In this document: piece after piece, positions 2,268 through 63,149 of the stretch
How positions within the stretch are numbered: position 1 is the stretch's first letter
Layout of the letters: every line of letters begins with the position of its first letter
NCBI GenBank assembly: GCA_038733315.1
Contig: JAVYPJ010000001.1
Coordinates: 71,863 to 135,862, forward strand
Length of the DNA: 64,000 nucleotides
Source of the DNA: Candidatus Aenigmatarchaeota archaeon
Lineage (GTDB): Archaea > Aenigmatarchaeota > Aenigmatarchaeia > CG10238-14 > SpSt-28
Direction: 5' to 3'
Position numbers and translations under genes: made by a program
Notes under the pieces: generated by a model
The model's input: only the letters and a program-made list of their open reading frames with translations
Told to the model about the DNA's origin: nothing
Databases searched by the model: none

Positions 2268-3277
2268 TTTTCTGATAGTATTTCCTTTATTCTTAAATCT
2301 AATTCTTCCTTTAACTTTTCATTTTTTTTCTTGCTAAAATAATCTAATTTAGCTGCCTTTGCTAAATAATTAGCTAAAACTCTTGAAACTTTTCCTCTTA
2401 ATTTTTTTGGCGCTTGCTGAATATATGGATGAATAAATATATATCCATGCTTAGGACTTTTGCCCTTGCCTCTCAAAAATCTAAACAATGCTTTTTCTGC
2501 TCCAACTAATTGAATTCTTGTGGACGGACTTTTTGCAATTTTTTCTAAACTTCCTATTCCTTTTATTAGTTTTGCTACTAATTTATAGCCAGCAAGCATA
2601 GTTAAATTTGGAGCGTATTCGCTAACAATTTTTTCTAGTCTTTTTTCTAATTCATTATTAAATTCAATTAAATCTAAAATCTTTAGAGCAAAGTATTTTA
2701 TAAATTCTAATAATTCTTCGCTAATTTCGCTTCCAACACTTTTTAAAGCTAATTCTTTATCTATGCTCTCTCTTTTTGGATTTTTTGCCAAAGTTTTAAC
2801 AAACTTTTCTATTGAAGTTTCTTTCTCAACATATTCCGGAAAATATATTTGATAAATTCTTCTTAACCTTTCTACTAATAAATTAATAATTTTTTCATTA
2901 TCTTCTATTGCTTGAATTAACTGAGAAATTATTCTATCTAATACTCTTTGCTCAGCTTCTAATTTTAATAACTTTTCACTAATTTTTTTACTTTTTTCAA
3001 TAATTTCTTCTCTTGAAATTTTTAAATTATTTACTAAAAAATTTAGAATTATTTCGCTAAAATCTTTTTGTTCATATTTATAACCAAGTTTCGGATATGT
3101 AAAAATTATTTCTTCGTTTAAATCTTTAATAAATTCCTTTTCAAAATCGCTTAATTCTTCTTTTTTAATTTCTAAGATTAAGTTTATTTGATTTTCATCA
3201 AAAAGTTTATACTTTATTATTTCATTTTTTTCATTAATTGCATATATTCCTACAGCATTAATCGAAACGTATATCAT
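2264..3277 (-). CDS. nop5: Box C/D RNP protein Nop5
   Basis: APNLT, PSTRIQLVGAEKALF, SPKHG; coupled to fibrillarin. Confidence 0.93.
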   Translation of the reverse strand: MIYVSINAVGIYAINEKNEIIKYKLFDENQINLILEIKKEELSDFEKEFIKDLNEEIIFTYPKLGYKYEQKDFSEIILNFLVNNLKISREEIIEKSKKISEKLLKLEAEQRVLDRIISQLIQAIEDNEKIINLLVERLRRIYQIYFPEYVEKETSIEKFVKTLAKNPKRESIDKELALKSVGSEISEELLEFIKYFALKILDLIEFNNELEKRLEKIVSEYAPNLTMLAGYKLVAKLIKGIGSLEKIAKSPSTRIQLVGAEKALFRFLRGKGKSPKHGYIFIHPYIQQAPKKLRGKVSRVLANYLAKAAKLDYFSKKKNEKLKEELDLRIKEILSEK

Positions 3278-3306
3278 AAAAAATATAACAACATAAATTT
3301 AAAGTT

Positions 3307-3534
3307 ATGGAAAGCTTGTTTTTAATCGGCTTAAGTCTAATTTTTATTGGAATATTCCTTATATTTTTATCAATAATTTTGCATAGCAAAAAAGAGGTAA
3401 AAAGTGAAGGTGGATTTGTAATAGTTGTTTGGCCTTTTTTTGTTGCTGGCGGAAACGAAAAAATTGTTCCAATTTTATTAACATTGGCTATAATTTTATC
3501 AATTATTCTTTTTGCATTCTTTCTCTTAAGATAG
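3307..3534 (+). CDS. Small archaeal membrane protein (DUF131/TIGR00304-like)
   Basis: Two hydrophobic helices around a GGFVIVVWPF motif. Confidence 0.7.
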   Translation: MESLFLIGLSLIFIGIFLIFLSIILHSKKEVKSEGGFVIVVWPFFVAGGNEKIVPILLTLAIILSIILFAFFLLR

Positions 3535-4499
3535 CCTCCTTTAATCCGTTATCTAAAAGTTTTTTAAAATTTTCTAAACTATCGTTATTTAGATTTAATC
3601 TTTTTGATAATTTTATTACTTCTTTTTTATTTTCTATTTTTAAGAATTTAAAAACTCCTATTTTGTATTGAAAATTATAAATTAAGTATTTATAATGAAA
3701 ATTTTGAAAAGAAATAGAGTTGAATACTTTATCCAATTTACATTAAATTTCTTCTCTCTTTTTATTAATAAAATAACATAAGAGTAGTTCCATAGTATTA
3801 TCAAAATAGCGAAGCCAAATTTACCTAATTTGAATAAATAATATACAAATTTTTTAATTGCATTAAAGTATTTTGAATATTCAAACCATAAGTATGCATT
3901 TCTATTAAAGAAAAAAGTATTTTTGTTCCAATCTGAGATAATTCTATAGTATTGTAAATAGCTCCTTTTTCTACAGGATTTCCGCATACTATATTTCTAT
4001 GCTTATGTTCTATGAAGTATTTTATAGTATTCAATTCTATATAATTTTTTGAAGAAGATGCCATTACCCAATGAATTAATCCAGTTGGATATGCGACATC
4101 TTTCTTAATTAATCTAAATAGAAATTCTCTAGATTCTTTATTCCTATACTTTCTATAAATTTTATACGCATCATATTTATCATTAATTAATTTTCTTAAA
4201 TCTTTTAGTAATTTCTTGTTTGGAACGTCATCTGCATCTAATTGAAGAATCCAATCGTATTTACATTCATTAATTCCAATTTTATAATAAAAATCTGCTA
4301 TTCCAATAGGAGGTAGCCAAACTACTTTAACTTTCTTATATTTTTTTGATAAATTTTTCATTAACTTTTTTTGATTTTTATCAGTAGAACTATCTATGAT
4401 TACTATTTCATCAACATATGGATAAAGAATTTCTACTTTAGGTTTTACCAATTCATATTCATTTATTGAAAATATTAATGCCGAAATTTTTTTATGCGT
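3503..4499 (-). pseudogene. Disrupted GT2 paralogue of 622-1608
   Basis: Homology to the intact copy runs through three frames (ORFs 3825-4574, 3682-3987, 3503-3736); ACG at the position of the start codon (4497-4499). Confidence 0.8.
4237..4490. repeat. Second copy of the ~254-bp GT2 5' block
   Basis: Near-identical to 1346-1599. Confidence 0.9.
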
Positions 4500-7277: not shown

Positions 7278-8085
7278 AATATTTACATCAGGATAGATAT
7301 GTGAAATAATCTTTTTAAGCTGAAACCCATTTTTAATAAATTTCCCAAATATTAATCTAGAAATTTCTAATGAATGACATTCTATAATCCATTCAGAAAT
7401 TTGTTTTATTAAATCGTCGTCTACAAAAACTAGAAACTTTTCACAACCTTCGCAATCTATTTTAGCTATATCTACTTTTTCCTTAATTGCTTTTTTCTAG
7501 GACTTCTTTCCAACATATACACTTAACTTTTATTTCTTTTGGTTTGTTTACTTTATTTTTAAATAGTGATAATTCACCATATCCATATTCGCTTTCCTCA
7601 ACTATAAATTTCATTATGCCGCTTTCTTTACAAACTGCATAAGGATATATTTTGCAATTAATATTGAATTTTTTAATAATCTTATTAGCAAATTCTACAT
7701 TTTCTTTGATTGGTTCATATGCTATAATCCTTTTGGCTCCAAGCTTATGAAAAAGTAAAATGCTATCTCCTATCCATGCACCAACATCCAAAACAACTCT
7801 ATTTTTAAATTTTATACCAAAATTTAGATAATCCAAAACATCTGTATTTATTTTTCCGTATTTAAGATAATAATAGTAATTAATGTTTATATGTTCTATT
7901 AGTTTTTTATAATTAAACTCATAAATTTCCTCGTTAAGATAAAATCTATATTTTTTCTGTCTAAAAATTAATGATTTTAGAAAATTCAAAAAATTTATAA
8001 AGATATATATATTTTTTGCAAAAATACAGAATAAATATACATCTCTTAGAAAATAAAAAAATTTTCTCCTAACGTTTTTTATCAT
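7251..8085 (-). pseudogene. FkbM-family SAM methyltransferase, frameshifted at an A6 run
   Basis: LDVGAWIGDS and YEP in ORF 7483-8085; KIDCEGCE and the C-terminus lie in the next frame (7490 to 7251); extra base in run 7491-7496. Confidence 0.85.
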
Positions 8086-8094
8086 TTTTATTTC

Positions 8095-8694
8095 TTATAT
8101 TCTTTCTTTAACTTCCCTTAATTTTTCCAAAACCGAATTAATGGCTTCTTCAAATAACTCTTCTGGTTTATGAAAACTCGTTGTTTCAATATTAAAAATA
8201 ACTTCAGAATCATTATAAGAATATCCACAATTTCCTGCTTGCCATTTTGCATGCTCTTTTCCTAAGCCAAGCTGAGCAATAGCTTCTAATTCTAATTCTT
8301 CATCTTCATTTAAATAAGTAATTGGAATTCTATCATATAATGGCTTAACTTTTTCATCACTACTTTTTAAATCTTCACTATAAACATATCCTGGTCCTTT
8401 TTTATAAAGATATAATTTTACTTGACATTTTACACAACCTTTTCCTTCGCAATCGCATTTATTTGGTAAAGTATGAAAATTTTTATCGAAAGTTAGCGGA
8501 ATTAAACCTAATCTATGAGCAATTGCTTCATCTGGCAAAACGCTATCATTTTTATAAAAATCTACCCATTCAATAGCCATAGTAGGTATTTCTGAAATTA
8601 TTGCTCTTCTTATCATAGCTGCAATTCCAGGAGTAATTCCAATTACTTTAATTTTTATTTCATCGTTACTTTTTTCTATTATTTTTATTTCCAT
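8095..8694 (-). CDS. rpoD: RNA polymerase subunit Rpo3/D
   Basis: IRRAIISEIPTMAIE, NDSVLPDEAIAHRLGLIPL, HAKWQ. Confidence 0.95.
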   Translation of the reverse strand: MEIKIIEKSNDEIKIKVIGITPGIAAMIRRAIISEIPTMAIEWVDFYKNDSVLPDEAIAHRLGLIPLTFDKNFHTLPNKCDCEGKGCVKCQVKLYLYKKGPGYVYSEDLKSSDEKVKPLYDRIPITYLNEDEELELEAIAQLGLGKEHAKWQAGNCGYSYNDSEVIFNIETTSFHKPEELFEEAINSVLEKLREVKERI

Positions 8695-8736
8695 AAAGTA
8701 TTTCAATTAAACTTTAAATAAATATGTAAATGTAAG

Positions 8737-24041: not shown

Positions 24042-25959
24042 CTAAACTTCAATATTTACACTTTTTATTCCAACTAATAATCCGGGACATACGTCTAAAC
24101 AATAAACTTCTATTTTTTTAATTTTCCCCTTAGGTAAATCTTTTAAAGGAATTTCTAAAAAATCTCCAAGCTTAAAAGTTTCATTCAGATTTATATTTCT
24201 TGTTTCTGTTTTGTTATCTTCGTATATTAATTTTAACTGTAATTTTTTACCTAAATCAATACCTAAATTTATTATAGTTAGTTTTATTATTGGAGAGGTT
24301 TCTTCGGTCTGTAGGGAAATTGTTGGTTCTGGAGATGAATATTTAAATGGTAATACTATGCTAATACTTTCAGATGTATAATATCCTCTTTCAAAAACTA
24401 AAATCGGTTTATTTGATGCTATCCTTATTAATCCCCAAGATGTTGTTACAGAATATTCTAATTGCTGTCCTTTATTTATAGCAACATTCGTATATGTTAT
24501 AGCACCCGAAATATTAAATACTGTATTATCTTCAGTTCCAATAATTCTTACATATCTTGAACCCCTACCAACTCTAAAAACAAAATATGTTCCCGCTCCT
24601 TTTCCATTTATACTTGGAATTTGTTCAGAACCATAATTATAATAATTGCCCTCTGTATAAACTAATACAGGCTTATTTGCAACAACCTTCATTCTAACAT
24701 ACTCTGGAGCATTACTTGAAAAACTTGTTATCTGTTGTGTTCTTATATAATCTCCTTCATTTGCTAAAATTCCTGACCAATCTCCTGTAGTTCCTTCCAA
24801 ATTATCTATAATTACATTTGTATTAGGATATAAAGCTGAAACTATTGTATAGCCATGAGAATAAAAGTAATAAATTTGAGTTCCATTTGGATAAGTTCTT
24901 CCATATATAATTGTGTAAATACTATCATCTTCTAAACCAAATTGAGCTGTTACATCATATGTTGCATTTATATAATAAAATCCAGGTGTTAAACTCCCAG
25001 AATACCAGCATTGACCTTCATTTAATGTTCCACTATATACATCTTGTAAATTAGAATTTTGTACTCTAACAAAATTATTATTATCATAGCTACAAATCCA
25101 TAAATGTCTTGGAACTCTAATCCATATTTTGTTTCCATAAATACTTGTTACATCATCATCTGAATCATGATCTGGTCCTATATCATCATAAGTTAAAGAA
25201 ATTGGTTTTGTTGATTTTATATAATAAGGATAATCTGAATTACAAGTATATGATGTAGATTGGAATTTATTTAAAGCTATTGTTTGAACTAATTGCCAAG
25301 TATCACTTCTATATATTGTTATAGTATTTCCATCTTCGTAAGAAACTATTCTAAATGCTGTTCCATTTCCAGTACTAACATTCAAACATGTAGAATAAAA
25401 CTCTGTTCCAATATAATTTGGAGTAATTAAGGAAAAATCTTGTTGAGAGTTAGCATTAGGATTTCCATAATACAAATAAATTATTTTTTGAGAATTAGCA
25501 GGAATGTTTGGTACTTTTACCCAAATTCTCGTATTATTTGTATTACAAGTATTTGGCTCTATCCAATAATTTAGTAAAGTAATTCCATCACTATCTGTAA
25601 ATCTAATATCTCCACAATCACTTCTCATTTTTCCTTGAGAAATCAATTCTTGAGTATTTATTGTTACTAAAATTTGATAATCTTCTAAATTCTCTGAATT
25701 CTGAGTATTATTTATTATTATAGGAATTCTATATTTAAAATCTTTATTAGCATTAAAATCTATTCTTGCCTTTGAACATTCTATAATTGATTTTATTGGA
25801 GAGGTTTCTTCAGTTTTTGTTTCTAAATAAGAAACGTAGCCAGAAAAATAAAGATATAATGTAACTCCAATTCCTATTGTTAAAGCAACTAAAATAACTG
25901 TAGCTACATATACGGAAATTAATTTTTTTAAGCTCGAATTTTTATATATATATATTCAT
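24042..25959 (-). CDS. Type IV pilin-like protein with an inserted DUF2341-like plus IgGFc-binding-N-like cassette; ATG out of frame
   Basis: Frame is open from 25955 to 24042 and encodes KKLISVYVATVILVALTIGIG..., a DUF2341-like head, a passenger and a pilin-like C-terminus; nearest ATG (25959-25957) is shifted by (AT)6. Confidence 0.8.
24288..24305. repeat. 18-bp direct repeat TATTGGAGAGGTTTCTTC (other copy 25794-25811)
   Basis: Both copies encode EETSPI; 1506 bp apart, in frame. Confidence 0.85.
25944..25955. repeat. (AT)6 microsatellite just after the ATG; candidate phase-variation switch
   Basis: Minus strand reads ATG A (AT)6 AAAAATTCG; n=4 or n=7 restores the frame. Confidence 0.75.
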
Positions 25960-26023
25960 GTTTAATTTCATGTAATTTAATTTTACCGAAACTCATAAAA
26001 ATAAAAATTATTTTATTTTTTAT

Positions 26024-27781
26024 TTATTTTGATAAGCTATTTACTAAAATATTGCCAATATCTTTTTCATATTCTTTAATTTTCTTTAAAACACCCGATA
26101 AAAAACTTTTAGCTTCATTTAAAACATTTTCCAAAGAATTTTTTCCCTCTATTATTTCATCTGTCTTCTTTTCAAATTCCCTTGTTAGCTTTTCGCTCAA
26201 AATTTCTGGACAGTATTTAAGGAAAGTTTCTACAACAGCTTTTCCTAAGCTTGTGATTTTCATTTTATCGTTAACTATATAGCCCCTATCATACAAAGTC
26301 TTAACTATTTCAGCCCTAGTAGTTTTAGTCCCTAAGTTCCTTGCCTCTAATTCTTTTATTAAGCTTGCTCTAGTATATCTTGCAGGAGGTTTAGTCTTTT
26401 CTTCAATCAATTTTAAATCCTTTACCGAAATTTCTTCAGATAAACTTAACTTAGGTAATAAATCTTCTTGAAGATTCAAAAATTTTTTATAAATTTTTAT
26501 CCAGTTTTCTTTTACTGTCTGATGAAAAACATTTTGAAAAAAGAAGTTATCAATCTTTGCAACTATTTTAATACTTTTTCTTATCGCTGGCTTATGTAAA
26601 CAAACTAAAAACCTTCTAACTATTAAATCATAGAGTAAAACCTCTTGTTTTGATAATTCTTTATATTTTGGTATTTCATCTGTAGGAATTATTGCAGGAT
26701 GTGCAGGATCTTCTTTTTTTCCTTCAGTAACTTCAATTTTATCGAACGATAAAATTTCTTTAACTAAATAACTATAAAATGGGATTTCGCTAAGAGAATT
26801 TAAAATTGGGAAAATGTTTATTCCTTTTAGTTTTTGAGAAGAAGATCTGGGATAAGAAATATATCCTTTTAAATATAAGCTTTCTGCAATTTTTAAAGTA
26901 TATTCTGGCTTAAAGCCAAAAGCATAATAAGCTTCTTCTTGTAAATCTGTAGTGTTAAATGGTGGTAAGGGATTTAATTTATATTCTTCTTCTTTAATCT
27001 GAATTAATCTACATTTTTTACCTTTACACTTTTCAAATATTTCTTTTGCCTTATTTAAATCCTTAATTTTTTCTTCTATATAAAAAACGAAAAATTCTAT
27101 TCCATCTTTTTCAAGAATTGCCTTAATTTTATAATATTTTTCTGGTTTAAAATTTTCAATTTCCTTTTCCCTTAAATAAACTAAATATAAAGCTGGTCCT
27201 TGAACTCTACCTATTGATAAAATTTTTTTCTCATTCGAAACTCTTCTTAAACTAATCATTAAAGCTCTTGACAAATTAATCCCCCAATACCAATCTAAAT
27301 AATGCCTTGCTAATCCCGCATTTACTTGATTAATTTCAAATTCAATAAGATTATTAAAAGATTTTATTAACTCATTTTTTGCTAAGGTGCTAAACTTCAT
27401 TCTTTTTATTTCTTTATCTAAGCCTATTAAATATCTTATTATATTCCATGCAATTACATATCCTTCAATATCGTAATCAGTTGCTACAATAACTTTATTT
27501 ACATCTTTTGCCAAATTTTTTATTAATTTTGCAAATTTTTCTGCTTTATTATCAACTATTTCCCAATCTGCATTAAAAATTGGATAATCGAAAAAATTGT
27601 TTTGGGGTTCTAATTTATATAAATGACCTAATGCAGAAACAACATAATAAACTTTGTTATTATAATAAGAAACAAAATAAGGAACTTTGTTAGAAAAAAT
27701 AATTTTACACTTAGGAAATAAACTGTATGCAATTTTCTTCATAGCTGTAGGTTTTTCAGCTAATATTAGAATTTTCTCCAT
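26024..27781 (-). CDS. topA: Type IA DNA topoisomerase
   Basis: AEKP, ATDYDIEG, SIGRVQGP, ISYPR, AHPAIIPT, LGTKTTR. Confidence 0.95.
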   Translation of the reverse strand: MEKILILAEKPTAMKKIAYSLFPKCKIIFSNKVPYFVSYYNNKVYYVVSALGHLYKLEPQNNFFDYPIFNADWEIVDNKAEKFAKLIKNLAKDVNKVIVATDYDIEGYVIAWNIIRYLIGLDKEIKRMKFSTLAKNELIKSFNNLIEFEINQVNAGLARHYLDWYWGINLSRALMISLRRVSNEKKILSIGRVQGPALYLVYLREKEIENFKPEKYYKIKAILEKDGIEFFVFYIEEKIKDLNKAKEIFEKCKGKKCRLIQIKEEEYKLNPLPPFNTTDLQEEAYYAFGFKPEYTLKIAESLYLKGYISYPRSSSQKLKGINIFPILNSLSEIPFYSYLVKEILSFDKIEVTEGKKEDPAHPAIIPTDEIPKYKELSKQEVLLYDLIVRRFLVCLHKPAIRKSIKIVAKIDNFFFQNVFHQTVKENWIKIYKKFLNLQEDLLPKLSLSEEISVKDLKLIEEKTKPPARYTRASLIKELEARNLGTKTTRAEIVKTLYDRGYIVNDKMKITSLGKAVVETFLKYCPEILSEKLTREFEKKTDEIIEGKNSLENVLNEAKSFLSGVLKKIKEYEKDIGNILVNSLSK

Positions 27782-27806
27782 ATTTTTAAATCGAATAAAA
27801 TATTTT

Positions 27807-29975
27807 ATGTATGTTATCGGAATTACACCTGGCGCTTATCAAATTGCTAGAGCTGCTGGAGCTGAAGCTGCAAGAGAATTTGCGGGAATAGAAGAAAAAT
27901 TAAGATATGGATATACTGTTGGATGCAATTTTTTTCAAATAGATCAAGAAGTTTTTGGAGAATTTGTAGAACCAAATTTAATAAAAAGAATTTCTAGATT
28001 AATTCAAGAAATGAATATTCAATGGGCATTGCATGGATTAATAATTGGAGAAATATATCAAACCTTAGAATCCATGAATTTTATTCTTTGGAAACTTTCT
28101 CATTTAATTCTAAACAGAGATTTAATTTTTTTGTACGAAATTTTGCAAGAAATAAAAAGAAATAATTATTCAAAAGAAGTTTTTCCGCACTATACAATTT
28201 ATCATGCAAGTAGAGAATTAGTTGTTGGTTATGCGCTATTTAGAGAAAGAGAAATAATATCCGAAGTTTTAACTATAAATCCTGAAGGAAATACAAATTG
28301 GGACGAATTCTTAGAAAAAAGAAAAAAATTAAAAGAATGGTTTTTAGAGAATGTTTTTGAAATATTGTTTAGAAGAGAGATTCTAAAAAGATTTGCCGGC
28401 TTTATTCCTTCTCCACTATTATTTGCACTAGCTAATTCATTATACATTCTTTTTAAAGACGATAAAATATCTGAAGATGATTTAAGAAAAATTTTAGAAG
28501 AAATAGAAGAAAATAAAAAAATTGTTGATGATATCATTAACTCTTTTAAAAATTTAAAAAATAATAAAATAGAACTAATAGATGAAAACATAATAAGAAT
28601 TGAAGCTAGTTTATCTAATTTTTTAAGAAACGTTTATCCAAAAGTTAAAAAGATTTATGAAAAGGTAGAAAATTTTTTTAAAGAAAAAAATTTGGAAAAT
28701 GAATTTAAAAAAGCAAAATTAAAAAGTTTAGAAAATTCATATACTATATATAAGCAACAATATGAAAGAGGAATAGCAAAGGGTGCAATATTTTATGAAG
28801 ATATAGCTATGTTATTAGTATGTAAAGATGTTGAATTTGGATATTTAGAAGAAAACTATGAATCTTTCTTATCAAAAAAAACATGTGAATTTTTAATTAA
28901 AAGATTATTAGATAATAAAAAAATTGAAGAGCATGTAAAAGAAACTTATAAAAAATTAGATGGTAACTTCGAAAAAGAATTAATTGATATAGAAAAGGGA
29001 GAAATAAATTTAACTCCGGAATTAAATACCTTAGCTTCTATTGTTTATTCTATTTCTCATTTTTTAGTTAGCATAGAAAATTTCCCAGAAATTTTAGAAG
29101 AAACAAGAAGAAGAATTTATCATTTAAGTGAAGAAGAAAAAAAGAATATTGAAGAATTTGCAAAAAAGAAGCCGTATGAAAAGCTAAAAATATTAATAGA
29201 AGAATTGAGAAAAATAGGAATTAATAGAGAAGAGGCTTTTTTTATTGCAATAGAAACTCCAGAAGCATCTCCACCTTATGAAGGCTTAAGAAGAATATGT
29301 AAATTAAAAGATGTTTTTATTGCTAGTGAAGCTTTAAACTTAGAATTTCAAATTAGATGTAATACAAAAGAAAAAGCTTTTGCTGCTTGTATTGATACTG
29401 AGCATTTATTATCCAATGCGTTTAACGTAAATAGCGAAATAGAAGAATTAATTGGATATGTTGAAAAGTGGAAAAACGAAATTTATTCAAGAGTAGCAAT
29501 ATATCATATAGGAGTTCCAAAGCCATATTTTGGAACTACACACATACCTTTTGATATTGGAAGTGATGAGCAATATTTAATATACGAATATTCCTTTAAA
29601 CTAAAAAAAGCTGGATTTAACGATGAAAAGAAAAATGATTTAGAAAGATATAGCTATTTAATTTTTGAAAGGGGTGGCGGGCAATTACCTTTTCAGTTTT
29701 TAAGAACTGTATTATTAGCATTAAGAATTATTAAAAAATATTTAGATATGAATATAGAACCGAATGAAATAGAAAAAAATAAAGAATATTATTCGGAATT
29801 TTTTGGTTTTGATGAGCAATTCATAAAAGAAAGAGAAATAATTTTTCAACACGCTTTAGATCCATTAAAAGGTATGATAGTATGGCCAGAAGAGGCTCAT
29901 ACAATTTTAGGAAGAGAAGCGATCGAAAGATTTAGAAAAAGACCTGAAGAATGGGCTTCTGAAGAGTATAAATAA
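27807..29975 (+). CDS. Large xylose-isomerase/AP-endonuclease-2-like TIM-barrel protein with a long helical insertion
   Basis: ALHG, IYHAS, IAIETPE, CIDTEHL, IYHI..THIP, IFERG; ATG at 27807 avoids overlap with topA. Confidence 0.6.
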   Translation: MYVIGITPGAYQIARAAGAEAAREFAGIEEKLRYGYTVGCNFFQIDQEVFGEFVEPNLIKRISRLIQEMNIQWALHGLIIGEIYQTLESMNFILWKLSHLILNRDLIFLYEILQEIKRNNYSKEVFPHYTIYHASRELVVGYALFREREIISEVLTINPEGNTNWDEFLEKRKKLKEWFLENVFEILFRREILKRFAGFIPSPLLFALANSLYILFKDDKISEDDLRKILEEIEENKKIVDDIINSFKNLKNNKIELIDENIIRIEASLSNFLRNVYPKVKKIYEKVENFFKEKNLENEFKKAKLKSLENSYTIYKQQYERGIAKGAIFYEDIAMLLVCKDVEFGYLEENYESFLSKKTCEFLIKRLLDNKKIEEHVKETYKKLDGNFEKELIDIEKGEINLTPELNTLASIVYSISHFLVSIENFPEILEETRRRIYHLSEEEKKNIEEFAKKKPYEKLKILIEELRKIGINREEAFFIAIETPEASPPYEGLRRICKLKDVFIASEALNLEFQIRCNTKEKAFAACIDTEHLLSNAFNVNSEIEELIGYVEKWKNEIYSRVAIYHIGVPKPYFGTTHIPFDIGSDEQYLIYEYSFKLKKAGFNDEKKNDLERYSYLIFERGGGQLPFQFLRTVLLALRIIKKYLDMNIEPNEIEKNKEYYSEFFGFDEQFIKEREIIFQHALDPLKGMIVWPEEAHTILGREAIERFRKRPEEWASEEYK

Positions 29976-33758: not shown

Positions 33759-34187
33759 ATGAAGGGTATATCTCCGCTAATAGCTACAATTATATTAATA
33801 GGTATAACCGTAATTATTGCTGGTGTTTTAGGCTTATGGGCGGCGAACTTTGTAACTTCGAAAACACAAGAAATAGGCCAAGGTACTACTGAAATAATGA
33901 GATTTAAATGTGATTTTATGAAATTTACCGTAGTTTCTAAAAACACACTTAATAATAATATTAGCTTTATTATATTGAACGATGGACCCATAGACATTAA
34001 TGGTCTCTCATTTACATTTATAGATCTTGATGATCAGAACAATATTAAAAATGTTGCTGGGATCGAAACGAACACTACATTAAAAAGAGCTTCTTACTCA
34101 AGAATAGAAATTCCAATTCTGCTAAATGATTATAACAAAATAGAGATTAGAAGTATAGAATGTCCAAACGTTAAAGCAGAGGAATAA
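33759..34187 (+). CDS. Archaeal type IV pilin
   Basis: Class III signal MKG/ISPLIATIILIGITV. Confidence 0.9.
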   Translation: MKGISPLIATIILIGITVIIAGVLGLWAANFVTSKTQEIGQGTTEIMRFKCDFMKFTVVSKNTLNNNISFIILNDGPIDINGLSFTFIDLDDQNNIKNVAGIETNTTLKRASYSRIEIPILLNDYNKIEIRSIECPNVKAEE

Positions 34188-34192
34188 AAACC

Positions 34193-35020
34193 TTAAGCTG
34201 ATAAAGAAAATGTCAAGTAACCTATTATCATTAGTATTATAGAGTACCTTAAACCAACTATTACACTACCTTCGCTCATCTTTCCAATTAATAATCCGTT
34301 AAAAAAACTCTGAATTAGTATAAGATGTAATATTATATTTTTAATTTCTAAGATGTTAATATTAACTTTTTTTTGAAATATTGCTCCGCTTTGATATTCT
34401 CCTATGGTTGGAATTAAAAACTTTAAAAGAATTATTATTATTGCTAAAAACATAAAGTAAATTAAAAATCCGTTAACTTTTGTTGGAGCGGCTATCATTT
34501 CCCTTTCTTTTTTAATTTTTTCGGATTCTATTAAGCTACTTATTGTAGCTTCTATAACAGAACTCATATCTCCACCAGCTTTAACAGCCTCTCCAACTGT
34601 TAAACTTAATTTTTTTATTAATTTAGATTCGCTCCTTTTTGCTAAGTTATATAGCGCTTTATCGAAAGGTATTCCTAATTTTATTTCTGAGGCCATTTTC
34701 TTAACTAAGGGTGTTAAAGATTTATAATCGTTATTCGCTATATCCTCAAAAATTAGAACTATATTCTTTCCGCTTTTAATACCTTCTGAAAGGTCTCTTA
34801 GAAAAGATGAAAAGTATACTTCCATTTCTTTTCTTGTTTTTTCTTTTTGATTTAAGATTAAAAATATTATAATTAGTGGCACGAATATCGCTAACGCATT
34901 TAGAAAAACATTAATAATTAAAACGTTTAAAATTTTTGATAAAATCAAATTATTAAAGAAAAGCAGAAAAATTCCAAAAACTACAGATATTATTATTGAT
35001 AAAATTTCTTCCGATTTCAT
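34193..35020 (-). CDS. Type IV pilus platform membrane protein (TadC/GspF-like)
   Basis: FLRDLSEGIKSG, LGIPF, AGGD, GKMSEG. Confidence 0.88.
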   Translation of the reverse strand: MKSEEILSIIISVVFGIFLLFFNNLILSKILNVLIINVFLNALAIFVPLIIIFLILNQKEKTRKEMEVYFSSFLRDLSEGIKSGKNIVLIFEDIANNDYKSLTPLVKKMASEIKLGIPFDKALYNLAKRSESKLIKKLSLTVGEAVKAGGDMSSVIEATISSLIESEKIKKEREMIAAPTKVNGFLIYFMFLAIIIILLKFLIPTIGEYQSGAIFQKKVNINILEIKNIILHLILIQSFFNGLLIGKMSEGSVIVGLRYSIILMIIGYLTFSLSA

Positions 35021-35871
35021 ATTTCTACTTCTATCCCCTTAATGAAAACTAAGAAAAATATATTTAAAAAGGGTAAAATTATATAAGTAAATATTTTAAA
35101 TAAATCTGTTAGAGAAATGCCGCCAACACTTTCTTGAATAGCGGCCATAACTATCATTATAGATACTAAGAATAATGGCAAAGAGACTACAAGACCTATG
35201 TATATTTCACTTATTGTTCCTAATCTTTGCAAGAAGCTTTCCTTTTTTATTCTCCAATCAAACATCAGATAATCATAGGTTATCTTAAGATATTTTTTTA
35301 AATCACCTCCACTCTCTATTATTGAAGCCAAGTTTCCTAAGAATTTTTGAAAAATAGGAGAGCATGTTGTTGATGCAACCTCTTTAATAGCTGAAATAAA
35401 ATCTATCCCATAGTTTTCTACTCTAATAACTACTTCCTTTAGCTCCTTTGATAATGCCCCATACTCTTCGAAATTAGAGATAATCTTAAAAATAAGATAA
35501 GGATTTATGTTGCTTTCTGAAATAGCCATCATATGAGAAACCGCACTTATAAAATTGTTTTCTATTTCTCTCCTATAATCGCTTTCTCCCTGAATAGCCC
35601 CGAAATAAAAAGTTAGGAAAACTGTTATAGGGATTAAAAAGGGTATTAAAGATTTAAGTATAAAGAATTCCTTAGGTATATTGATTGGTATGAAAAAAAT
35701 AAATATACCTATTATAAAAGATAGAAAAGTATAGAAAAACATTCTAGCTAAATAAATAGAATAAAGAGTTTTTGATCTAGTAGATGTTAGGGCTCTCTTA
35801 ATTCTTAAGAAAAATTTCAGCTTCTTAACTCTTTCCACTAACCAAGAAAACAGTGAATACTCTATACTCAT
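35017..35871 (-). CDS. Type IV pilus platform membrane protein (TadB/C-like)
   Basis: EYGALSKE, YGID, SGGDL; multi-TM. Confidence 0.88.
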   Translation of the reverse strand: MSIEYSLFSWLVERVKKLKFFLRIKRALTSTRSKTLYSIYLARMFFYTFLSFIIGIFIFFIPINIPKEFFILKSLIPFLIPITVFLTFYFGAIQGESDYRREIENNFISAVSHMMAISESNINPYLIFKIISNFEEYGALSKELKEVVIRVENYGIDFISAIKEVASTTCSPIFQKFLGNLASIIESGGDLKKYLKITYDYLMFDWRIKKESFLQRLGTISEIYIGLVVSLPLFLVSIMIVMAAIQESVGGISLTDLFKIFTYIILPFLNIFFLVFIKGIEVEI

Positions 35872-35879
35872 AAAATATT

Positions 35880-37484
35880 TTAAGTTTCCACAACAAAAAT
35901 ATAACCGAGTTTTTTTGTTATATCACTTTCTTTTAATTTAAGGATTTTTCTTTTTGCTTCCTCATATTCAATCTTACCCTCTATCATTTGCATTAAAGTT
36001 TTTTTATCCTTATAATACATCTTTATTATTTCCGCTACCTCTTCATAACTTTTTTTATTATTTTTTTGCATCCATTCAATAACCTTAATTCTATCTTCTA
36101 TTTCTTTAATAGCGTTTTCCATCGTAATACCATATTTTTCACAGATTTTTGGAATCAGTAAGCTTTCACTTGCTTTTTCATAAGAATCTGTAAATGGATT
36201 CCATCTATATGTTATGTTTTGCATAACCTCACCCCTTTCATCGATTCCACCAATCTCCACAATCTCCTTAATTCTTCTAGCATATTCTCCTTTTTCTTTA
36301 GCCCTTTTCATTACTATTACAAAATCTAAGGCTTCTACTAGTCCGATTGGTAATTCTATTGGTGGAGAAATCAATCTTTTAACTAAGGAGCTAACATCTT
36401 CTGCATGGAATGTAGATATACTCGCATGACCAGAAGCCATACCTTGAAACATAACATAAACTTCTCTACCTCTTGTTTCCCCAACAATAACATATTCTGG
36501 ATTCATTCTAAAACTTTCTCTTAGTAAATCAAAAAGGGTTACTTCTCCATATTTACTTCCACTAGGAAGCGGTAAACCAAAACCTACTCTAGTAACTAAA
36601 GGAACCCAATGCTCATGAACAAATCTCAATTCTCTTGTATCTTCTATACTTACAATCTTGGCATCTGGTCTAATAAAAATTCCTAAGCTATTTAAAAAGC
36701 TCGTTTTTCCACTTCCTACACCGCCAATTATTAAAAAAGATGTTTTATGCTCTATTAGAAACCATAAATATGCTAAAATTTCGCTATTTACAGTTTTTAA
36801 GTCTATTAATTCTATTGGAGAAAATGGTTTCTCAGTAAATTTTCTTATAGTAAAAGATGGGCCTTTTTGAGATATCTCTTCGCTAAAAGTTGCGCTAACT
36901 CTTGAGCCATCCGGTAAAGTTCCTTCTAAAATGGGTTCAGCATAAGATACGTATCTTCCACATTTTTGAGATAATTTGATTATGAATTCCTTTAGCTTTT
37001 CTATATCTCTAAAAATAATATTAGTTCTTATGTTTCCAAAGTATCTATGAGTTACGTATATTGGCAAATTAACTCCACTACAGCTTATGTCCTCTATGTA
37101 TGGATCGTGCATTAATGGCTCTATTTCGTTTAAACCTATAAAATCTCTAAAAATATAATAACTAATTTTCAGAAAACTTTCGCTATCAACCTTAATTTTC
37201 AATATACTTATTACTTTCTTAATAGCCTCTTCTACTGTTTTATTTAGTATTTCTTTATTTTTAACTTTTTCTAAATCTATGTCCAAATATTCTAAGATAA
37301 GCTCTTTTATTCTTTCTAACGTTTTCTTCTCACTATCATTTAGCTCTGGCTCTATTACTTCGTAAAAAATACTTTTATCTTCTTTGTTATAGAAAATGTG
37401 AGCATATGCATATGGTTTTATTAATTCATATTTTATATTTAGATTTTCGATTTTCTCCGGGATTTTTATTTCAAGTATTTCCAT
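35880..37484 (-). CDS. Type II/IV secretion (pilus assembly) ATPase
   Basis: DPYIEDISC, TIRKF, GGVGSGKT, SIEDTRE, VGETRGRE, TFHA. Confidence 0.95.
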   Translation of the reverse strand: MEILEIKIPEKIENLNIKYELIKPYAYAHIFYNKEDKSIFYEVIEPELNDSEKKTLERIKELILEYLDIDLEKVKNKEILNKTVEEAIKKVISILKIKVDSESFLKISYYIFRDFIGLNEIEPLMHDPYIEDISCSGVNLPIYVTHRYFGNIRTNIIFRDIEKLKEFIIKLSQKCGRYVSYAEPILEGTLPDGSRVSATFSEEISQKGPSFTIRKFTEKPFSPIELIDLKTVNSEILAYLWFLIEHKTSFLIIGGVGSGKTSFLNSLGIFIRPDAKIVSIEDTRELRFVHEHWVPLVTRVGFGLPLPSGSKYGEVTLFDLLRESFRMNPEYVIVGETRGREVYVMFQGMASGHASISTFHAEDVSSLVKRLISPPIELPIGLVEALDFVIVMKRAKEKGEYARRIKEIVEIGGIDERGEVMQNITYRWNPFTDSYEKASESLLIPKICEKYGITMENAIKEIEDRIKVIEWMQKNNKKSYEEVAEIIKMYYKDKKTLMQMIEGKIEYEEAKRKILKLKESDITKKLGYIFVVET

Positions 37485-59021: not shown

Positions 59022-62000
59022 ATGAAAAAAGAAAAAATTTTTTTGATTTTTCTTTTTTTTACAATTTTTATATTTAACTTTTCTCTATCTTTTTCTCAAA
59101 CCTGGCTTTCTGGTTGGCAATATAGAATTCCAATAACAATTAGAGAAAATTCTGGGAATACTTTAACAGATTACCAAATTTTAGTAACAATAAATACTCA
59201 GAACTTAATTTCTCAAGGAAAAATGAGAAGTGATTGCGGAGATATAAGATTTACTGATAGTGATGGAAGAACTTTATTGAATTATTGGATTGAAGATGGA
59301 TGTAATTCTACTAATACAAAAATTTGGGTAAAAGTACCAAATATTCCTGCTAATTCAAATAAAATAATTTATTTGTATTATGGAAATCCAAATGCTAATT
59401 CGATGAGTAATGGAGATTTGGTTTTTGAATTTTTTGATGATTTTAGAACAAATCCCAATACAAATGGTAAATGGAGAATTTTTAGATACTCAAATGACGT
59501 TAATAACGAGTTCGTATGGGACAACACAAATAATCAAGTGTATCTGACAAGAAATTTAAATGGTAAAGGTGTTATGGCGTTTTTTAATAAATCTTTTTCA
59601 CCATATAATACCATTACAGAATTTGAAATTTATATTGGCGGCGGTAATGGTGCTGACGGATTGTCGTTTTATTTCGATAAAAACATAAATCCATATATAA
59701 CCTATGGAAGAGCACTTGCTGGAGGCAGTATGGCAAGTATGGCCTTCGATGGTTCTAATTCCTATCTTTCTGAAGGATATAGCATAGGATTCGATACTCG
59801 GCGAAACACCGAAAATGGATATGAACAATCTACGCCACATATAGAAGTTGCAAGGACTAGCGCAACAAACCCTAGTGTACATTATTCGGGAGCTCATCTA
59901 ACTTCCGTCTCTTATTCAAACTTAAGAGGAAATTGGTTGAAGGTAGTAGTAATAATAAAATCTAATGCTGTTGAAGTTTATATAAACAACGTTCTACAAC
60001 TCAGTTATACTGGTTTAACATCTCTAAATTATAACTGGCAGGGGATTGGTGCGTCGACTGGCGGGTATAATGACAATCATGCGATAAAAAACTTAAGAGT
60101 TAGAAAATTCGCACCACAAGAGCCAACATATACATTAGGTAGGGAAGAGTCCATCACTTTAGTTCCCGTATGGCTAAGTTATTTTTCTAACGTTTCTCAA
60201 GCTATAATTAATCAGCCGATAAAATTTTCGAGCTTATGGAATGCTTCCCAAATTCCATATTTAACCCAACCTTCTCAAACCTGGCTTTCTGGTTGGCAAT
60301 ATAGAATTCCAATAACAATTAGAGAAAATTCTGGGAATACTTTAACAGATTACCAAATTTTAGTAACAATAAATACTCAGAACTTAATTTCTCAAGGAAA
60401 AATGAGAAGTGATTGCGGAGATATAAGATTTACTGATAGTGATGGAAGAACTTTATTGAATTATTGGATTGAAGATGGATGTAATTCTACTAATACAAAA
60501 ATTTGGGTAAAAGTACCAAATATTCCTGCTAATTCAAATAAAATAATTTATTTGTATTATGGAAATCCAAGTGCTACTTCTATGAGTAATGGAGATAATA
60601 CTTTTATATTTTTTGATGATTTCTCCTTTAGAAACATTTCCAAATGGAATTGGCCTGACAACTGGATTATAGAAAATAACACAGCAAAACAAACAGTAGC
60701 GAATTGGTGGAGTTCCGAGTTGATCTCTCAAAAACTGAATATTGGAATCAGCAATTATGTTGGTATTTGTATAAAAACGTTGGCCATAAACGACGGCACC
60801 GTTCGGGCGTACGATGTTGTAGTCTCAGTTAATATTAGTAATTCGTGGTATAATTCACCGTTCTTTACAACGTCCTATGCATGGTACGGTTTTTTCGATA
60901 GAATATGTTCTGGAAGTGGAAGTTGCCCGTATGGAGAGACTAGGCAATGGAGAGTCTATGATATTATAATATTTACTAATAATCAAACGTGGTATTTGGA
61001 CGGATCTGTTATAGATTCTAGAAATTCAGCCGTAGGTAATATTATTTATAATTTTGCCATAAATTCAAAAGGTGTTAGTAGATTCGATTATTTTATAGTT
61101 AGAAAATGTAGTAGAATAAATCCAATTGTTTCTCTTGGAAGTGAAGAGATACTTTCCTCATCTTCAAGCGTCTTTCTCTCAAACTACATTTTCTCATATA
61201 AATTAGGAAATTCTCAATGGATTAATGAAACCTATAGATTTGGTCCCGTATATCAAACCTGGCTTTCTGGTTGGCAATATAGAATTCCTATAACAATTAG
61301 AGAAAATTCTGGAAATACTTTAACAGATTATCAAATTTTAGTAACGATAAACACTCAGAACTTAATTTCTCAAGGAAAAATGAGAAATGATTGTGGAGAT
61401 ATAAGATTTATAGATAGTGATGGAAGTATTTTATTAAATTATTGGATTGAAAGTGGTTGCAATACAACTAATACAAGAATTTGGGTAAAAGTACCAAATA
61501 TTCCGGCTAATTCTCAAAAAACAATTTATTTGTATTATGGAAATCCAAGTGCTACTTCTATGAGTAATGGAACTAGCACTTTTATATTTTTTGATGATTT
61601 TGAAGATGGTGATTACACTAATAATCCTGTATGGAATATAGATACCGGTCAAAAAATATGTACAAGCTACTGTTGTGGAAGTTATAGTGCTTCTAACAGA
61701 TATTTAGAATTAACATCAGGTTTTTGCTCTTTAAATCTTTATTCAGATTTACCTCAACCGATATCACCACAAAAAATAGCAATAGATTTTAACTCTTGGT
61801 GGACAGGAACACATTGTTATAATAATGAAGTTCTCTTACTAAACTCATCAAACGCTATAATGATTGGTGGTGGCGGTGTTTTATGTGATTATCATTCTAT
61901 AAGAGCCCTAGAGCTTAGAGTAAATAATAATTTTTATTCTAGCAGCTTGGATTTCCCATATGGCACTTGGCATCGTATAACTATTATATTTAATGGAACT

Positions 62001-63149
62001 CATTATACTGTTAGAATGAACGATGTAAATACTTATTCTATTTCTGAAGCAATCTATCCATATCCTATAACGACAATATACATAGGAGGTTGGCAACATT
62101 CTATGGGCGCTAAATTTGATAATATTAGAATTCGCAAATACACTTCACCAGAACCAACAGTTTCCATAGGAAATGAAGAAACTATGCTACCTTTCACAGC
62201 CTGGGCAAATGTTACAAAAAGTTTCTCTCAGCCAGGAACATTGTGTTGGAAATTTTATGCAAACAATACTCTAAATCTATGGAATGTTACGCCAGAAAGT
62301 TGCTTAAATATAATTTCGCCAGATTTTTGGCTAGAAGCTAAACTATTAGATCCTAGAGAAAATAGTATAATAAACCTAATTCCTGGAGAAGGAATTCAAG
62401 TAAAAGCAAATGTAACATTAAGGTCTAACTATTTCTTTTGTACGAATGGAAACGCAACTCTAAGATATAATACTTCGACTTCAATGCTACCAAATACTGC
62501 AATACCAACGTCTTCCGCACCTATAACAACAGATACAAATCCAATATACGTTGGAAATCTATGTGTAAATAATTCTACTCAAGTTGTTTTTAATTTAATA
62601 GCTAACAGTCAAACTTATAAGATAGTAGATGTAAATTTCTGCTTTGAGCAAATATGTAATAATACATTGCGTTTTTTTGTTAACGTTTCTATAACAACAC
62701 CAAGAAACCTAACATTAAAAAAAGGATGGAACTTAATTTCTATACCCTATAAAACTATAAATCTTGATTTGAACAGAGATGGATGTAATTTAAGAGAAAG
62801 GGTATTTCACTATTTTAATGCTTCGTCGAACTCTTGGGAATATCATACCTATAAAAATTTAAGAGGTGGAATAGCATATTGGATTTATAGCGAAAAAAAT
62901 TGTGAATCGGTTTTATATGTTAGTGACGCAGTTACTCCAAACGACATGCCAGGAATAATACGAGGAAAAAAGAATTATATAGGTAGTTTAAGCTCTTCAA
63001 GAAGTCTTCAAGAAATATATACCAACATACGACAACTATGTAATTCTGTCAGTATAGCACGCTGGGATTCCGAAAGAAACGCATTCTTAAATATAGATAT
63101 ATCAAGCAATTTAACTCCTTGGTACGGTTATATCTTAGAATGTTCTTAA
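59022..63149 (+). CDS. Secreted multi-cassette surface protein: three DUF2341-like heads, each with a different lectin-like passenger
   Basis: Signal peptide; three WLSGWQYRIPITI...DIRF...YWIE...WVKVP...YYGNP heads; many N-x-S/T sequons; C-terminal GWNLISIP...YWI domain. Confidence 0.85.
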   Translation: MKKEKIFLIFLFFTIFIFNFSLSFSQTWLSGWQYRIPITIRENSGNTLTDYQILVTINTQNLISQGKMRSDCGDIRFTDSDGRTLLNYWIEDGCNSTNTKIWVKVPNIPANSNKIIYLYYGNPNANSMSNGDLVFEFFDDFRTNPNTNGKWRIFRYSNDVNNEFVWDNTNNQVYLTRNLNGKGVMAFFNKSFSPYNTITEFEIYIGGGNGADGLSFYFDKNINPYITYGRALAGGSMASMAFDGSNSYLSEGYSIGFDTRRNTENGYEQSTPHIEVARTSATNPSVHYSGAHLTSVSYSNLRGNWLKVVVIIKSNAVEVYINNVLQLSYTGLTSLNYNWQGIGASTGGYNDNHAIKNLRVRKFAPQEPTYTLGREESITLVPVWLSYFSNVSQAIINQPIKFSSLWNASQIPYLTQPSQTWLSGWQYRIPITIRENSGNTLTDYQILVTINTQNLISQGKMRSDCGDIRFTDSDGRTLLNYWIEDGCNSTNTKIWVKVPNIPANSNKIIYLYYGNPSATSMSNGDNTFIFFDDFSFRNISKWNWPDNWIIENNTAKQTVANWWSSELISQKLNIGISNYVGICIKTLAINDGTVRAYDVVVSVNISNSWYNSPFFTTSYAWYGFFDRICSGSGSCPYGETRQWRVYDIIIFTNNQTWYLDGSVIDSRNSAVGNIIYNFAINSKGVSRFDYFIVRKCSRINPIVSLGSEEILSSSSSVFLSNYIFSYKLGNSQWINETYRFGPVYQTWLSGWQYRIPITIRENSGNTLTDYQILVTINTQNLISQGKMRNDCGDIRFIDSDGSILLNYWIESGCNTTNTRIWVKVPNIPANSQKTIYLYYGNPSATSMSNGTSTFIFFDDFEDGDYTNNPVWNIDTGQKICTSYCCGSYSASNRYLELTSGFCSLNLYSDLPQPISPQKIAIDFNSWWTGTHCYNNEVLLLNSSNAIMIGGGGVLCDYHSIRALELRVNNNFYSSSLDFPYGTWHRITIIFNGTHYTVRMNDVNTYSISEAIYPYPITTIYIGGWQHSMGAKFDNIRIRKYTSPEPTVSIGNEETMLPFTAWANVTKSFSQPGTLCWKFYANNTLNLWNVTPESCLNIISPDFWLEAKLLDPRENSIINLIPGEGIQVKANVTLRSNYFFCTNGNATLRYNTSTSMLPNTAIPTSSAPITTDTNPIYVGNLCVNNSTQVVFNLIANSQTYKIVDVNFCFEQICNNTLRFFVNVSITTPRNLTLKKGWNLISIPYKTINLDLNRDGCNLRERVFHYFNASSNSWEYHTYKNLRGGIAYWIYSEKNCESVLYVSDAVTPNDMPGIIRGKKNYIGSLSSSRSLQEIYTNIRQLCNSVSIARWDSERNAFLNIDISSNLTPWYGYILECS
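59093..59391. repeat. 299-bp exact repeat, cassette head copy A
   Basis: Identical to 60272-60570. Confidence 0.93.
60272..60570. repeat. Cassette head copy B
   Basis: Identical to copy A; downstream sequence then follows copy C. Confidence 0.93.
61253..61600. repeat. Cassette head copy C (diverged)
   Basis: Scattered substitutions relative to A/B; 3' end matches B. Confidence 0.9.

Follow-up and report, generated by a model that had tools for sequence, protein, structure and literature searches.

An archaeal type IV pilin-like protein with an exchangeable passenger in its first beta-hairpin, encoded by a Candidatus Aenigmatarchaeota genome

The stretch of DNA discussed here (the window, 64,000 nucleotides of contig JAVYPJ010000001.1) comes from a Candidatus Aenigmatarchaeota archaeon, a member of the DPANN lineage whose genome (G000 in what follows) is available as 733 kb in 7 contigs, 94% complete. 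The subject is one gene on its minus strand, 24042..25955, which the listing of open reading frames for the window gives as a single stop-to-stop frame of 637 codons, with ~27% G+C in its DNA. A preliminary description, made from the letters of the window, had called this gene a type IV pilin with an adhesin cassette inside its globular domain; the coordinates given there are exact, and every string quoted there is present in the protein. The 637-residue protein is called P0001 here. Other P-numbers denote proteins, and G-numbers denote the genomes compared.

From its N-terminus, P0001 has a leader (...KNSSLKKL), a helix (ISVYVATVILVALTIGIGVTLYLYF), a linker (TKTEETSPIKS), the residues IIEC, a strand (RIDFNAN) and a DUF2341 domain. 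These are followed by a beta-rich region of ~360 residues, by the segment KYSSPEPTISLQTEETSPI, and by a C-terminal domain of 81 residues that ends in ...VYCLDVCPGLLVGIKSVNIEV. The N-terminal pilin part (residues 1-70, 25746..25955, on the minus strand like all parts of the gene) holds the leader, the hydrophobic alpha1 helix ISVYVATVILVALTIGIG..., the linker with TEETSPI, Cys60 and strand beta1 (RIDFNAN); the structure model places the helix at residues 15-46 and the strand at 65-71. The passenger comes next, with the DUF2341 domain (residues 73-175, 25431..25739) and a beta-rich domain of the IgGFc-binding type (residues 176-537, 24345..25430). The linker that leads from the passenger into strand beta2 (24288..24344) is placed by its sequence and by the alignment of relatives. 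The C-terminal pilin part (residues 557-637, from beta2 to the end, with Cys620 and Cys623, plus the stop codon) occupies 24042..24287. The public gene call, P0155 (24042-25628), is a form of 528 amino acids that starts at an internal methionine and lacks the pilin N-terminus. Automatic annotation therefore conceals the pilin nature of the protein.

The preliminary description had seen in the two ends of this protein the parts of one small pilin, like the pilin at 33759. It pointed to a pilin-type N-helix, KKLISVYVATVILVALTIGIGVTLYLYF, followed by IIECSKARIDF. Both are there, and the N-terminal part aligns with columns 7-68 of a profile of 101 small pilins (hhalign, 98.9%, E 1.1e-17). The last ~80 residues, said to resemble the rest of a small pilin, align with the consecutive columns 74-148 of the same profile (96.0%, E 4.2e-9), and the 33759 pilin aligns with it over its full length (99.6%, E 1.2e-23). 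Both flanks are homologous to pilins, the point on which the earlier idea might have failed. The likeness to the 33759 pilin holds by way of this family profile, but not as a direct pair: BLASTP gave a collinear match that was not significant (E 0.33 for the C-terminal parts, 3.6 for the N-terminal parts). Relatives and profile methods were therefore needed.

When 41 related genomes were searched in six frames with the last 99 residues of P0001, 10 of the 41 gave matches, among them five of the six other genomes of the genus. An orthologue without a cassette, which the preliminary description had proposed to seek, exists in a sister species (G005). This is P0005, a protein of 156 residues (MNKKLISAFVATIILVALTVG...LIECSKVNVDIAASGGSGYVNLTLVNLGIDLGRNF...) that holds both halves of P0001, at 60% and 36% identity. 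Here, AASGGSG stands where P0001 has its passenger, and the halves are joined through a hairpin turn of 3 residues. Two cysteines of P0005, C52 (before beta1) and C136 (near the C terminus), are invariant in nine of nine aligned proteins, and their positions are at least 90% conserved across the 101 small proteins.

A profile of three cassette-less proteins and P0001, searched against 1.84 billion representatives, matched 265 proteins at E<=1e-3. Among the best 150 of these 265, 100 are small proteins of 125-180 residues. A word-index search with the cassette-less pilin gave 2 proteins only, and the exhaustive profile search was thus required. Pfam Pilin_N matches 37 of the 101 family members and Arch_flagellin 12 of them (E<=0.01); the NCBIfam model UpsA reaches P0001 weakly (E 0.0018, 18.4 bits, against a cut-off of 130).

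Because this first profile was trained with the insert of P0001 in it, a hidden Markov model was rebuilt from small pilins only. It gives two separate matches in insert-bearing proteins. In 20 of the 23 proteins tested, the C-terminal match starts at profile position 60-76 with an independent E-value of at most 2e-5; the exceptions are P0020 (which is truncated), P0102 (0.0012) and P0158 (0.53). Judged from these alignments, the sequence of the pilin domain is interrupted, and the additional domain leaves it at the loop that joins two strands.

The AlphaFold model of P0005 (pLDDT 92.8) has a helix at residues 8-42, a short helix with the cysteine, and then a sandwich of seven strands in which beta1 spans 57-63 and beta2 spans 67-74. 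The best match of this model in Foldseek is the archaeal type IV pilus of Pyrobaculum calidifontis (8fk7_A, E 7.4e-4), and the top 35 also include archaellins, FlaF, a CARDB domain and a Haloferax pilus. In VIA-align, FlaF reaches Z 9.4, the Halobacterium archaellin 9eq7_J reaches Z 8.0 (over 140 residues) and 8fk7_A reaches Z 7.5, on a scale where generic FN3/Ig chains also reach Z 7-8. As modeled, P0005 has the Ig-like sandwich fold of solved archaeal pilins and archaellins, and homology would carry that fold to P0001. From the homology to small pilins together with the fold of P0005, it follows that the scaffold is an archaeal helix-plus-Ig pilin, in which the passenger (residues ~71-556) replaces the beta1-beta2 turn.

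The preliminary description had also expected that structure prediction would fold the two halves together. In a two-chain prediction, residues 13-72 and 553-637 scored 0.45, against 0.06 for the best of 3 controls, with at least 84% contact agreement between runs and a partner pLDDT of at least 64. The mark applied here was reached in calibration by 51 of 78 solved complexes and by 2 of 108 mismatched pairs; at a score of 0.60 or less it was reached by 5 of the 78 solved complexes and by all 4 passing mismatches (of 180). Halves of one domain can, of course, pass through their likeness to solved pilins, and this result is for that reason not relied upon. The expectation draws weak support from the two chains, and the model of full-length P0001 is mediocre as a whole. 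The C half of that model is confident (pLDDT 79-93). Foldseek with the full-length model was tried and was uninformative, as it returned long multi-domain beta proteins with TM<=0.14.

The passenger itself, ~486 residues, consists of the DUF2341 domain, the IgGFc-binding-type domain and a KYSSPEPT linker. The DUF2341 family (Pfam PF10102, E 2.5e-21) matches residues 113-173 with 76.4 bits, against a cut-off of 23.4. This head had been likened to those encoded at 59-62 kb, and it is indeed 75-76% identical to all three modules there. The region behind it had been called reminiscent of the IgGFc-binding domain. The corresponding family, PF17517, stands above its cut-off of 25.6 when 24348-25430 is scanned alone (51.0 bits, E 1.7e-13, in 3 stretches), scores 50.4 bits in the 528-residue form, and is unlisted in a scan of the whole 637 residues. 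The domain carries repeated ..ED.T...SNKP..V units. The tail quoted in the preliminary description, KYSSPEPTISLQTEE, is present, and KYTSPEPTVSIGNEE is found in the 59-kb protein. A K/R-Y-x-x-PEPT motif ends the passengers of relatives also.

The 59-kb protein (59022-63149, plus strand) has 1375 residues and a Sec-type signal, and its three DUF2341 modules stand in tandem. Behind every module come a beta-rich domain, different each time, and a ...PEPT..EE linker. The protein probably serves as a reservoir or a partner for cassette exchange. In hot-spring metagenome runs, contigs contain parts of the window. Here, the DUF2341 part of the gene (25420-25703) has a contig depth ~4-50x that of adjacent gene parts, in four of four runs; the module is multi-copy or common to many members of the community.

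What stands at the passenger site differs among relatives. Of the best 150 of the 265 representatives, 21 carry an insert of 144-718 residues at the same profile position, and 8 have a C-terminal extension in place of the insert (FGE-sulfatase, fibrinogen-C, LamG or beta-propeller). The 21 inserts hold Laminin_G_3 only (10), DUF2341 only (4), DUF2341 with Laminin_G_3 (4), DUF2341 with RCC1 (1) or no recognized domain (2). Three of the proteins with LamG inserts, from Aenigmarchaeota or Aenigmatarchaeota, have the NCBI name “LamG domain-containing protein.”

The same is seen inside the source genome, where tblastn found two paralogues. In parA (C2:95276-96673, 465 residues), the N-terminal part is 97% identical to that of P0001, the DUF2341 domain 89% and the C-terminal part 92%, and three RCC1 repeats form the middle. 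In parB (C2:41592-44225, 877 residues), the N-terminal part is 97% and the C-terminal part 72% identical, around two DUF2341 modules and further beta domains. As DNA, the window gene shares with parA 493 nucleotides at 93.5% and 312 nucleotides at 93.6%, and with parB 194 nucleotides at 96.9% and 238 nucleotides at 82%; in both pairs the middles are unrelated. The homology to parA stops within ~10 nucleotides of the coding region. A third gene, parC (C1:150630-151037, 135 residues), encodes a cassette-less small pilin with the leader MKIRA/IS.

Other genomes extend the series. The passenger is DUF2341 plus LamG in G003 and DUF2341 plus RCC1 in G004:C2, and at the locus in G004:C1 that corresponds by synteny to the window gene it is again DUF2341 plus LamG. 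G018 has the same IgGFc-type passenger as the window gene, at 88% identity. The cassette-less pilin of G005 and the pilin of G002a (LamG, without DUF2341) have the same neighbors and are positional orthologues; as read from this synteny, they differ in the presence or absence of the cassette at one locus. In G000, the place syntenic with that locus (C2:193560-194260) holds a small non-pilin open reading frame.

The cassette, conversely, occurs in other scaffolds. Its IgGFc-type domain has no paralogue within G000 and is 64-69% identical in P0156-P0158. P0158 has the DUF2341 plus IgGFc-type cassette (64-65% identity) within a different pilin scaffold (MRALKSISSFLASVLLV...). P0156 has it (64-65%) in a non-pilin surface protein of 1106 residues, where a Sec-type signal is combined with membrane helices at the C terminus. 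In one metagenome contig, the end of the passenger is joined via 63 nucleotides to another DUF2341 domain. The preliminary description had held the cassette to be exchangeable and had named an architecture invariant across relatives as the finding that would speak against this. Cassette-less, RCC1, LamG and double-DUF2341 forms were found instead. Because different passengers occupy one site, because a form without a cassette exists, and because the same cassette occurs elsewhere, exchangeability is established by comparison.

Exchange may also be recent. G018 is filed in another genus, and the C half of its protein is still 97% identical to that of P0001. The synonymous divergence (dS) between the two genes is 0.75 in the N-terminal part and 0.15-0.30 in the rest (for the C half and the IgGFc-type domain, 0.15-0.18), a difference that speaks for a recent exchange of cassette and C half between lineages by recombination. 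A direct repeat of 22 nucleotides that encodes TEETSPI lies at the junction of passenger and beta2 (24287..24308) and again between alpha1 and beta1 (25793..25814). Its copies are identical at 21 of 22 positions, are spaced by 1506 nucleotides (502 codons), and flank beta1 and the passenger; in parA, the repeat is identical at 24 of 24. As a site for clean excision the repeat is unlikely, because a deletion between the copies would remove beta1 along with the passenger.

Two relatives with LamG passengers have breaks in their reading frames. In G002:C6 (locus L018), two copies of such a pilin gene, at 2977-4118 and 7587-8728, lie ~4.6 kb apart, and their frames for passenger plus C half translate identically. 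In both copies, the N-terminal part and the passenger are in different frames at an GGAAAAAATTTG (A6) run, at the junction of beta1 and passenger; the cause would be phase variation, or else a mistake of assembly in the homopolymer. In G004:C1 (locus L016, ~2969-3020), the LamG orthologue has a second frame break at an CTAAAAAAGTA (A6) run inside the passenger.

The window gene has an irregularity of its own, missed in the preliminary description. No in-frame ATG, GTG or TTG is found upstream of its helix. The paralogues parA and parB start in frame (MSFRNKNSSLKKLIS / MSFSNKNSSLKKLIS). In the window gene, ATGAGTTT stands at 25996, followed by 38 extra nucleotides; its frame reads MSFGKIKLHEIKHEYIYIKIRA, and then stops. 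Thus, the ancestral ATG (25996-25994) opens a leader frame of 22 codons (MSFGK...IRA, stop; 25928..25996, minus strand). This frame is one base off the pilin frame, and the two overlap only in tga-ATATATATATATA-AAAA. The overlap holds a (TA)6 tract (25943..25955), the candidate on/off switch. The same layout of ATG and (TA)6, with an identical tract of 13 nucleotides, is present in G018 and in G004:C1. Both loci show synteny with the window gene and lie immediately downstream of the topoisomerase gene. All three genomes have (TA)6.

The number of units in this tract, which lies in the 5' coding region, sets the reading frame. As assembled, with (TA)6, there are 22 codons from the ATG to the first stop. 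With one TA unit fewer there would be 650, and with two units more, (TA)8, there would be 652; one unit more gives 18, and two units fewer give 16. Variants of the tract were looked for in Logan contigs from four hot-spring runs of four studies, aligned at 85% likeness, where the best word share between the window and the sequencing runs was 0.36; no RNA run is listed among those that share words with the window. At 25942, one contig of run X1 (depth 4.5 of 158.9) and one of run X5 (21.3 of 49.5) have TATA inserted. The contigs of X9 have no such insertion at the tract, and X8 has no cover there. In the 733-kb genome, (TA)6 is the longest of 2 TA tracts of at least 12 nucleotides. Compared with its G018 orthologue, the window gene has a ratio of nonsynonymous to synonymous substitution (dN/dS) of 0.34 over 634 codons, and of 0.10 for the C half; by this measure it is under purifying selection. 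The start layout suggests, as its most economical reading, repeat-length switching of the kind used in bacterial adhesin genes.

Machinery that might take up such a pilin is encoded 8 kb away. At 33.7-37.5 kb lie a canonical small pilin of the same family (33759..34187, plus strand, 142 residues, leader MKG/ISP), two T2SSF platform proteins (34193-35020 and 35017-35871, minus strand) and one T2SSE ATPase (35880-37484, minus strand). G000 has 5 matches to the T2SSE family in all. The neighbors of the window gene are cdc48 on one side and topoisomerase genes on the other. An open frame of 762 residues at 27687-29975 (plus strand) matches no Pfam family at E<=1e-5, and, if a TTG start is taken, ~95 nucleotides at its 5' end are shared with the topoisomerase gene.

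P0001 is, in our estimation, quite probably a modular archaeal type IV pilin in which a passenger-bearing beta1-beta2 turn is joined with display at the pilus tip, with binding, and with a TA switch. Comparison of sequences establishes its parts. A pilin module consists of a leader, the hydrophobic alpha1 helix and an Ig-like beta-sandwich of ~90 residues; the turn of its first beta-hairpin is opened and carries the passenger; and the scaffold is reused with other passengers in the genome, just as the passenger is reused with other scaffolds elsewhere. Display on a pilus and recognition of a host are suggested by analogy and by gene content. Here, Cys60 (before beta1) and Cys623 (near the C terminus), which are nearly invariant in the family, would clamp the halves together. 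Once the leader is removed, the type IV pilus machinery would take up the protein by means of alpha1. Because of its bulk, P0001 would occupy the pilus tip, where the lectin-like passenger could bind a glycan or a protein of a host cell or of a surface. The three paralogues would serve as alternatives with different binding specificities. For translation to begin at the ancestral ATG, a change of frame in (TA)6 would be needed, and changes of length, for example to (TA)8, would switch the gene on or off.

Several observations weigh against this reading. The family profile includes P0005 and parC, close relatives of the query halves, and the hhalign values are therefore not fully independent and are somewhat flattering. 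Pfam Pilin_N (PF07790) finds no match in the 637 residues of P0001 at E<=1. The full-length model has pLDDT 70.2 and pTM 0.48, and a contact of beta1 with the C half is predicted from the alignments. In all three genomes that have the locus, the assembled gene lacks a usable start. Switching stays hypothetical because the (TA)8 contigs, at 85% likeness, may come from other strains or species, and because one of them has a depth below 5. TA tracts show no genome-wide excess, with 2 tracts against 0-2 in 5 first-order Markov simulations.

The remaining points concern processing and position. In a class III signal peptide, the residue at -2 is basic and the one at -1 is small (Gly, Ala or Ser). 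The preliminary description had remarked on a Leu at -1 and had called processing uncertain; the site does read K-L/IS, which fails that rule. Among the 109 of 118 relatives in which the motif is recognizable, the residues at -2 and -1 are KG in 56, KA in 29, KS in 6, RG in 5, KL in 3, RL in 1 and others in 9, so that KG, KA, KS and RG together make up 96 and the unusual KL and RL only 4. The sole Peptidase_A24 candidate of G000, at C2:117593-117910, has 24.9 bits, below the cut-off of 26.5. The window gene also lies outside the pilus operon, between cdc48 and the topoisomerase genes.

These last facts are what one would expect of a membrane-anchored surface adhesin that is no pilus subunit at all. 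Here, an uncleaved N-terminus would anchor the protein or form a short stalk, with the sandwich serving as a pedestal; a short stalk has reportedly been proposed for pilin-signal sugar-binding proteins of Sulfolobus. The presence of the same cassette in P0156, which has a Sec-type signal and is no pilin, fits as well. However, the entire pilin module, beyond the helix, is conserved with small pilins, and the genome has several ATPases of the type IV pilus type. Further, a Leu before the helix is a feature of this clade (KKL/IS, MRL/IS), where the cassette-less and other orthologues have MNKKL/IS or MRL/IS with the canonical leader length; this suggests a cleavage site that is lineage-specific, not dead. 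An anchored adhesin is on these grounds an unlikely account of P0001.

The start layout, in turn, might reflect recoding and not switching at the level of DNA. The ribosome would make a -1 (or +2) shift on the TA-repeat/A5, leaving the MSFGK... leader frame for that of the pilin, or would use a non-standard start, such as the ATA at 25955. The segment tga-ATATATATATATA-AAAA is, after all, letter-identical in three genomes whose flanks differ, all three assemblies share the “off” register, and the leader frame is open with mostly conservative changes (MSFGKIKLHEIKHEYIYI / MNFRKFKLYEIRHEYIYI / MNFNKFKLHETKREYIYI). However, no conserved stimulatory RNA fold adjoins the TA tract, where the consensus structure has -4.9 kcal/mol and starts ~32 nucleotides downstream, and variants in tract length occur naturally. 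Recoding has perhaps a small chance of being the right explanation. Quite improbable is a decaying pseudogene whose start was lost through the 38-nucleotide insertion in the leader region: the lack of an in-frame start, the frame breaks of relatives at A6 runs (in the passenger in G004:C1; where beta1 meets the passenger in the two copies of G002) and the truncated public call would agree with decay, but 637 codons are open at 27% G+C in G000 and G018 with 12.5% of residues differing, dN/dS is that of a selected gene, three genomes have the break at one and the same repeat, and there is an allele that restores the frame.

The reading as a modular pilin can be widened. It is conceivable, as a tentative extension, that a two-layer contingency system for attachment, like those of bacterial pathogens, is at work, in which tip pilins with identical scaffolds recombine lectin cassettes and short repeats gate each copy on or off. 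The TEETSPI and KYxxPEPT linkers would be the conserved junctions at which cassettes recombine, and gating would be by (TA)n in the leader here and by A6 runs in relatives. If this were true, a clonal population would show changing host-binding heads. It would also mean repeat-driven phase variation in an archaeon, of which the literature search found no clear case, and a mechanism for host-range switching in episymbiotic archaea.

How DPANN archaea recognize and hold their hosts is largely unknown, and this gene family is a concrete candidate for the purpose. Its elements are a pilin scaffold with a defined site of display at the beta1-beta2 turn, heads of lectin type that can be interchanged, and a DNA tract that may act as a switch. 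Public annotation overlooks this architecture, with relatives labeled “LamG domain-containing protein” or “DUF2341 domain-containing protein.” For the protein engineer, the hairpin site could serve as a natural display scaffold from thermophiles.

Dinucleotide repeats occur in the control of bacterial surface structures, as in the hif fimbrial promoters of Haemophilus influenzae, which have TA repeats. The oipA gene of Helicobacter pylori, which encodes a phase-variable surface adhesin, has CT repeats in its 5' region (PMC10564699). Such adhesin genes are like the window gene in that a dinucleotide tract in the leader-coding part sets the frame, and in that natural length variants exist. In contrast, the window gene belongs to an archaeon, and it has a short tract of 6 units that does not differ among three assemblies; switching here is a candidate mechanism.

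DUF2341 has a history with archaeal pili. DUF2341 proteins (arCOG03508) occur in archaeal type IV pilus loci and have been proposed as tip adhesins by analogy with PilY1 (Makarova et al., 2016; PMC4858521). Like P0001, they link this domain to archaeal type IV pili. However, the account of the pilus loci of Methanococci in that paper presents them as large proteins, and does not describe them as passengers inside a pilin sandwich; its main text uses neither “inserted” nor “insertion.” Literature searches found no description of a lectin module placed within the sandwich of an archaeal pilin, an absence that is, of course, not proof.

The nearest parallels are bacterial. Modular type IV pilins have been defined in bacteria, in many architectures that suggest evolutionary “grafting” (Raynaud et al., 2021; PMC8179133). 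In PilB (with a vWA module) and PilC (with a concanavalin-A-like lectin) of Streptococcus sanguinis, a small pilin module likewise presents a bulky ligand-binding module, for which that paper proposes a location at the tip on steric grounds. In P0001, by contrast, the module is inserted in the first beta-hairpin, and its pilin domain is discontinuous for that reason. Closer still, in the terms of the same paper, are ComZ (Thermus thermophilus) and GspK (type II secretion), where an extra domain is inserted into the pilin beta-sheet; the likeness is drawn from the published description. These two are bacterial alpha/beta-roll folds from single genes, whereas here an archaeal helix with an Ig-like sandwich comes as a set of paralogues with swapped passengers on scaffolds that are nearly identical. 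The bacterial survey rested on the N-terminal signature IPR012902, and the word “archaea” is absent from its main text. The comparison supports the view of P0001 as a modular pilin of the insert-in-sheet type known in bacteria, placed on an archaeal scaffold and accompanied by paralogues with swapped heads; the possible repeat switch is its most novel element and its least secure. The bacterial “modular pilin” principle would then extend to the helix-plus-Ig pilins of archaea, in an inserted form that is harder to detect.

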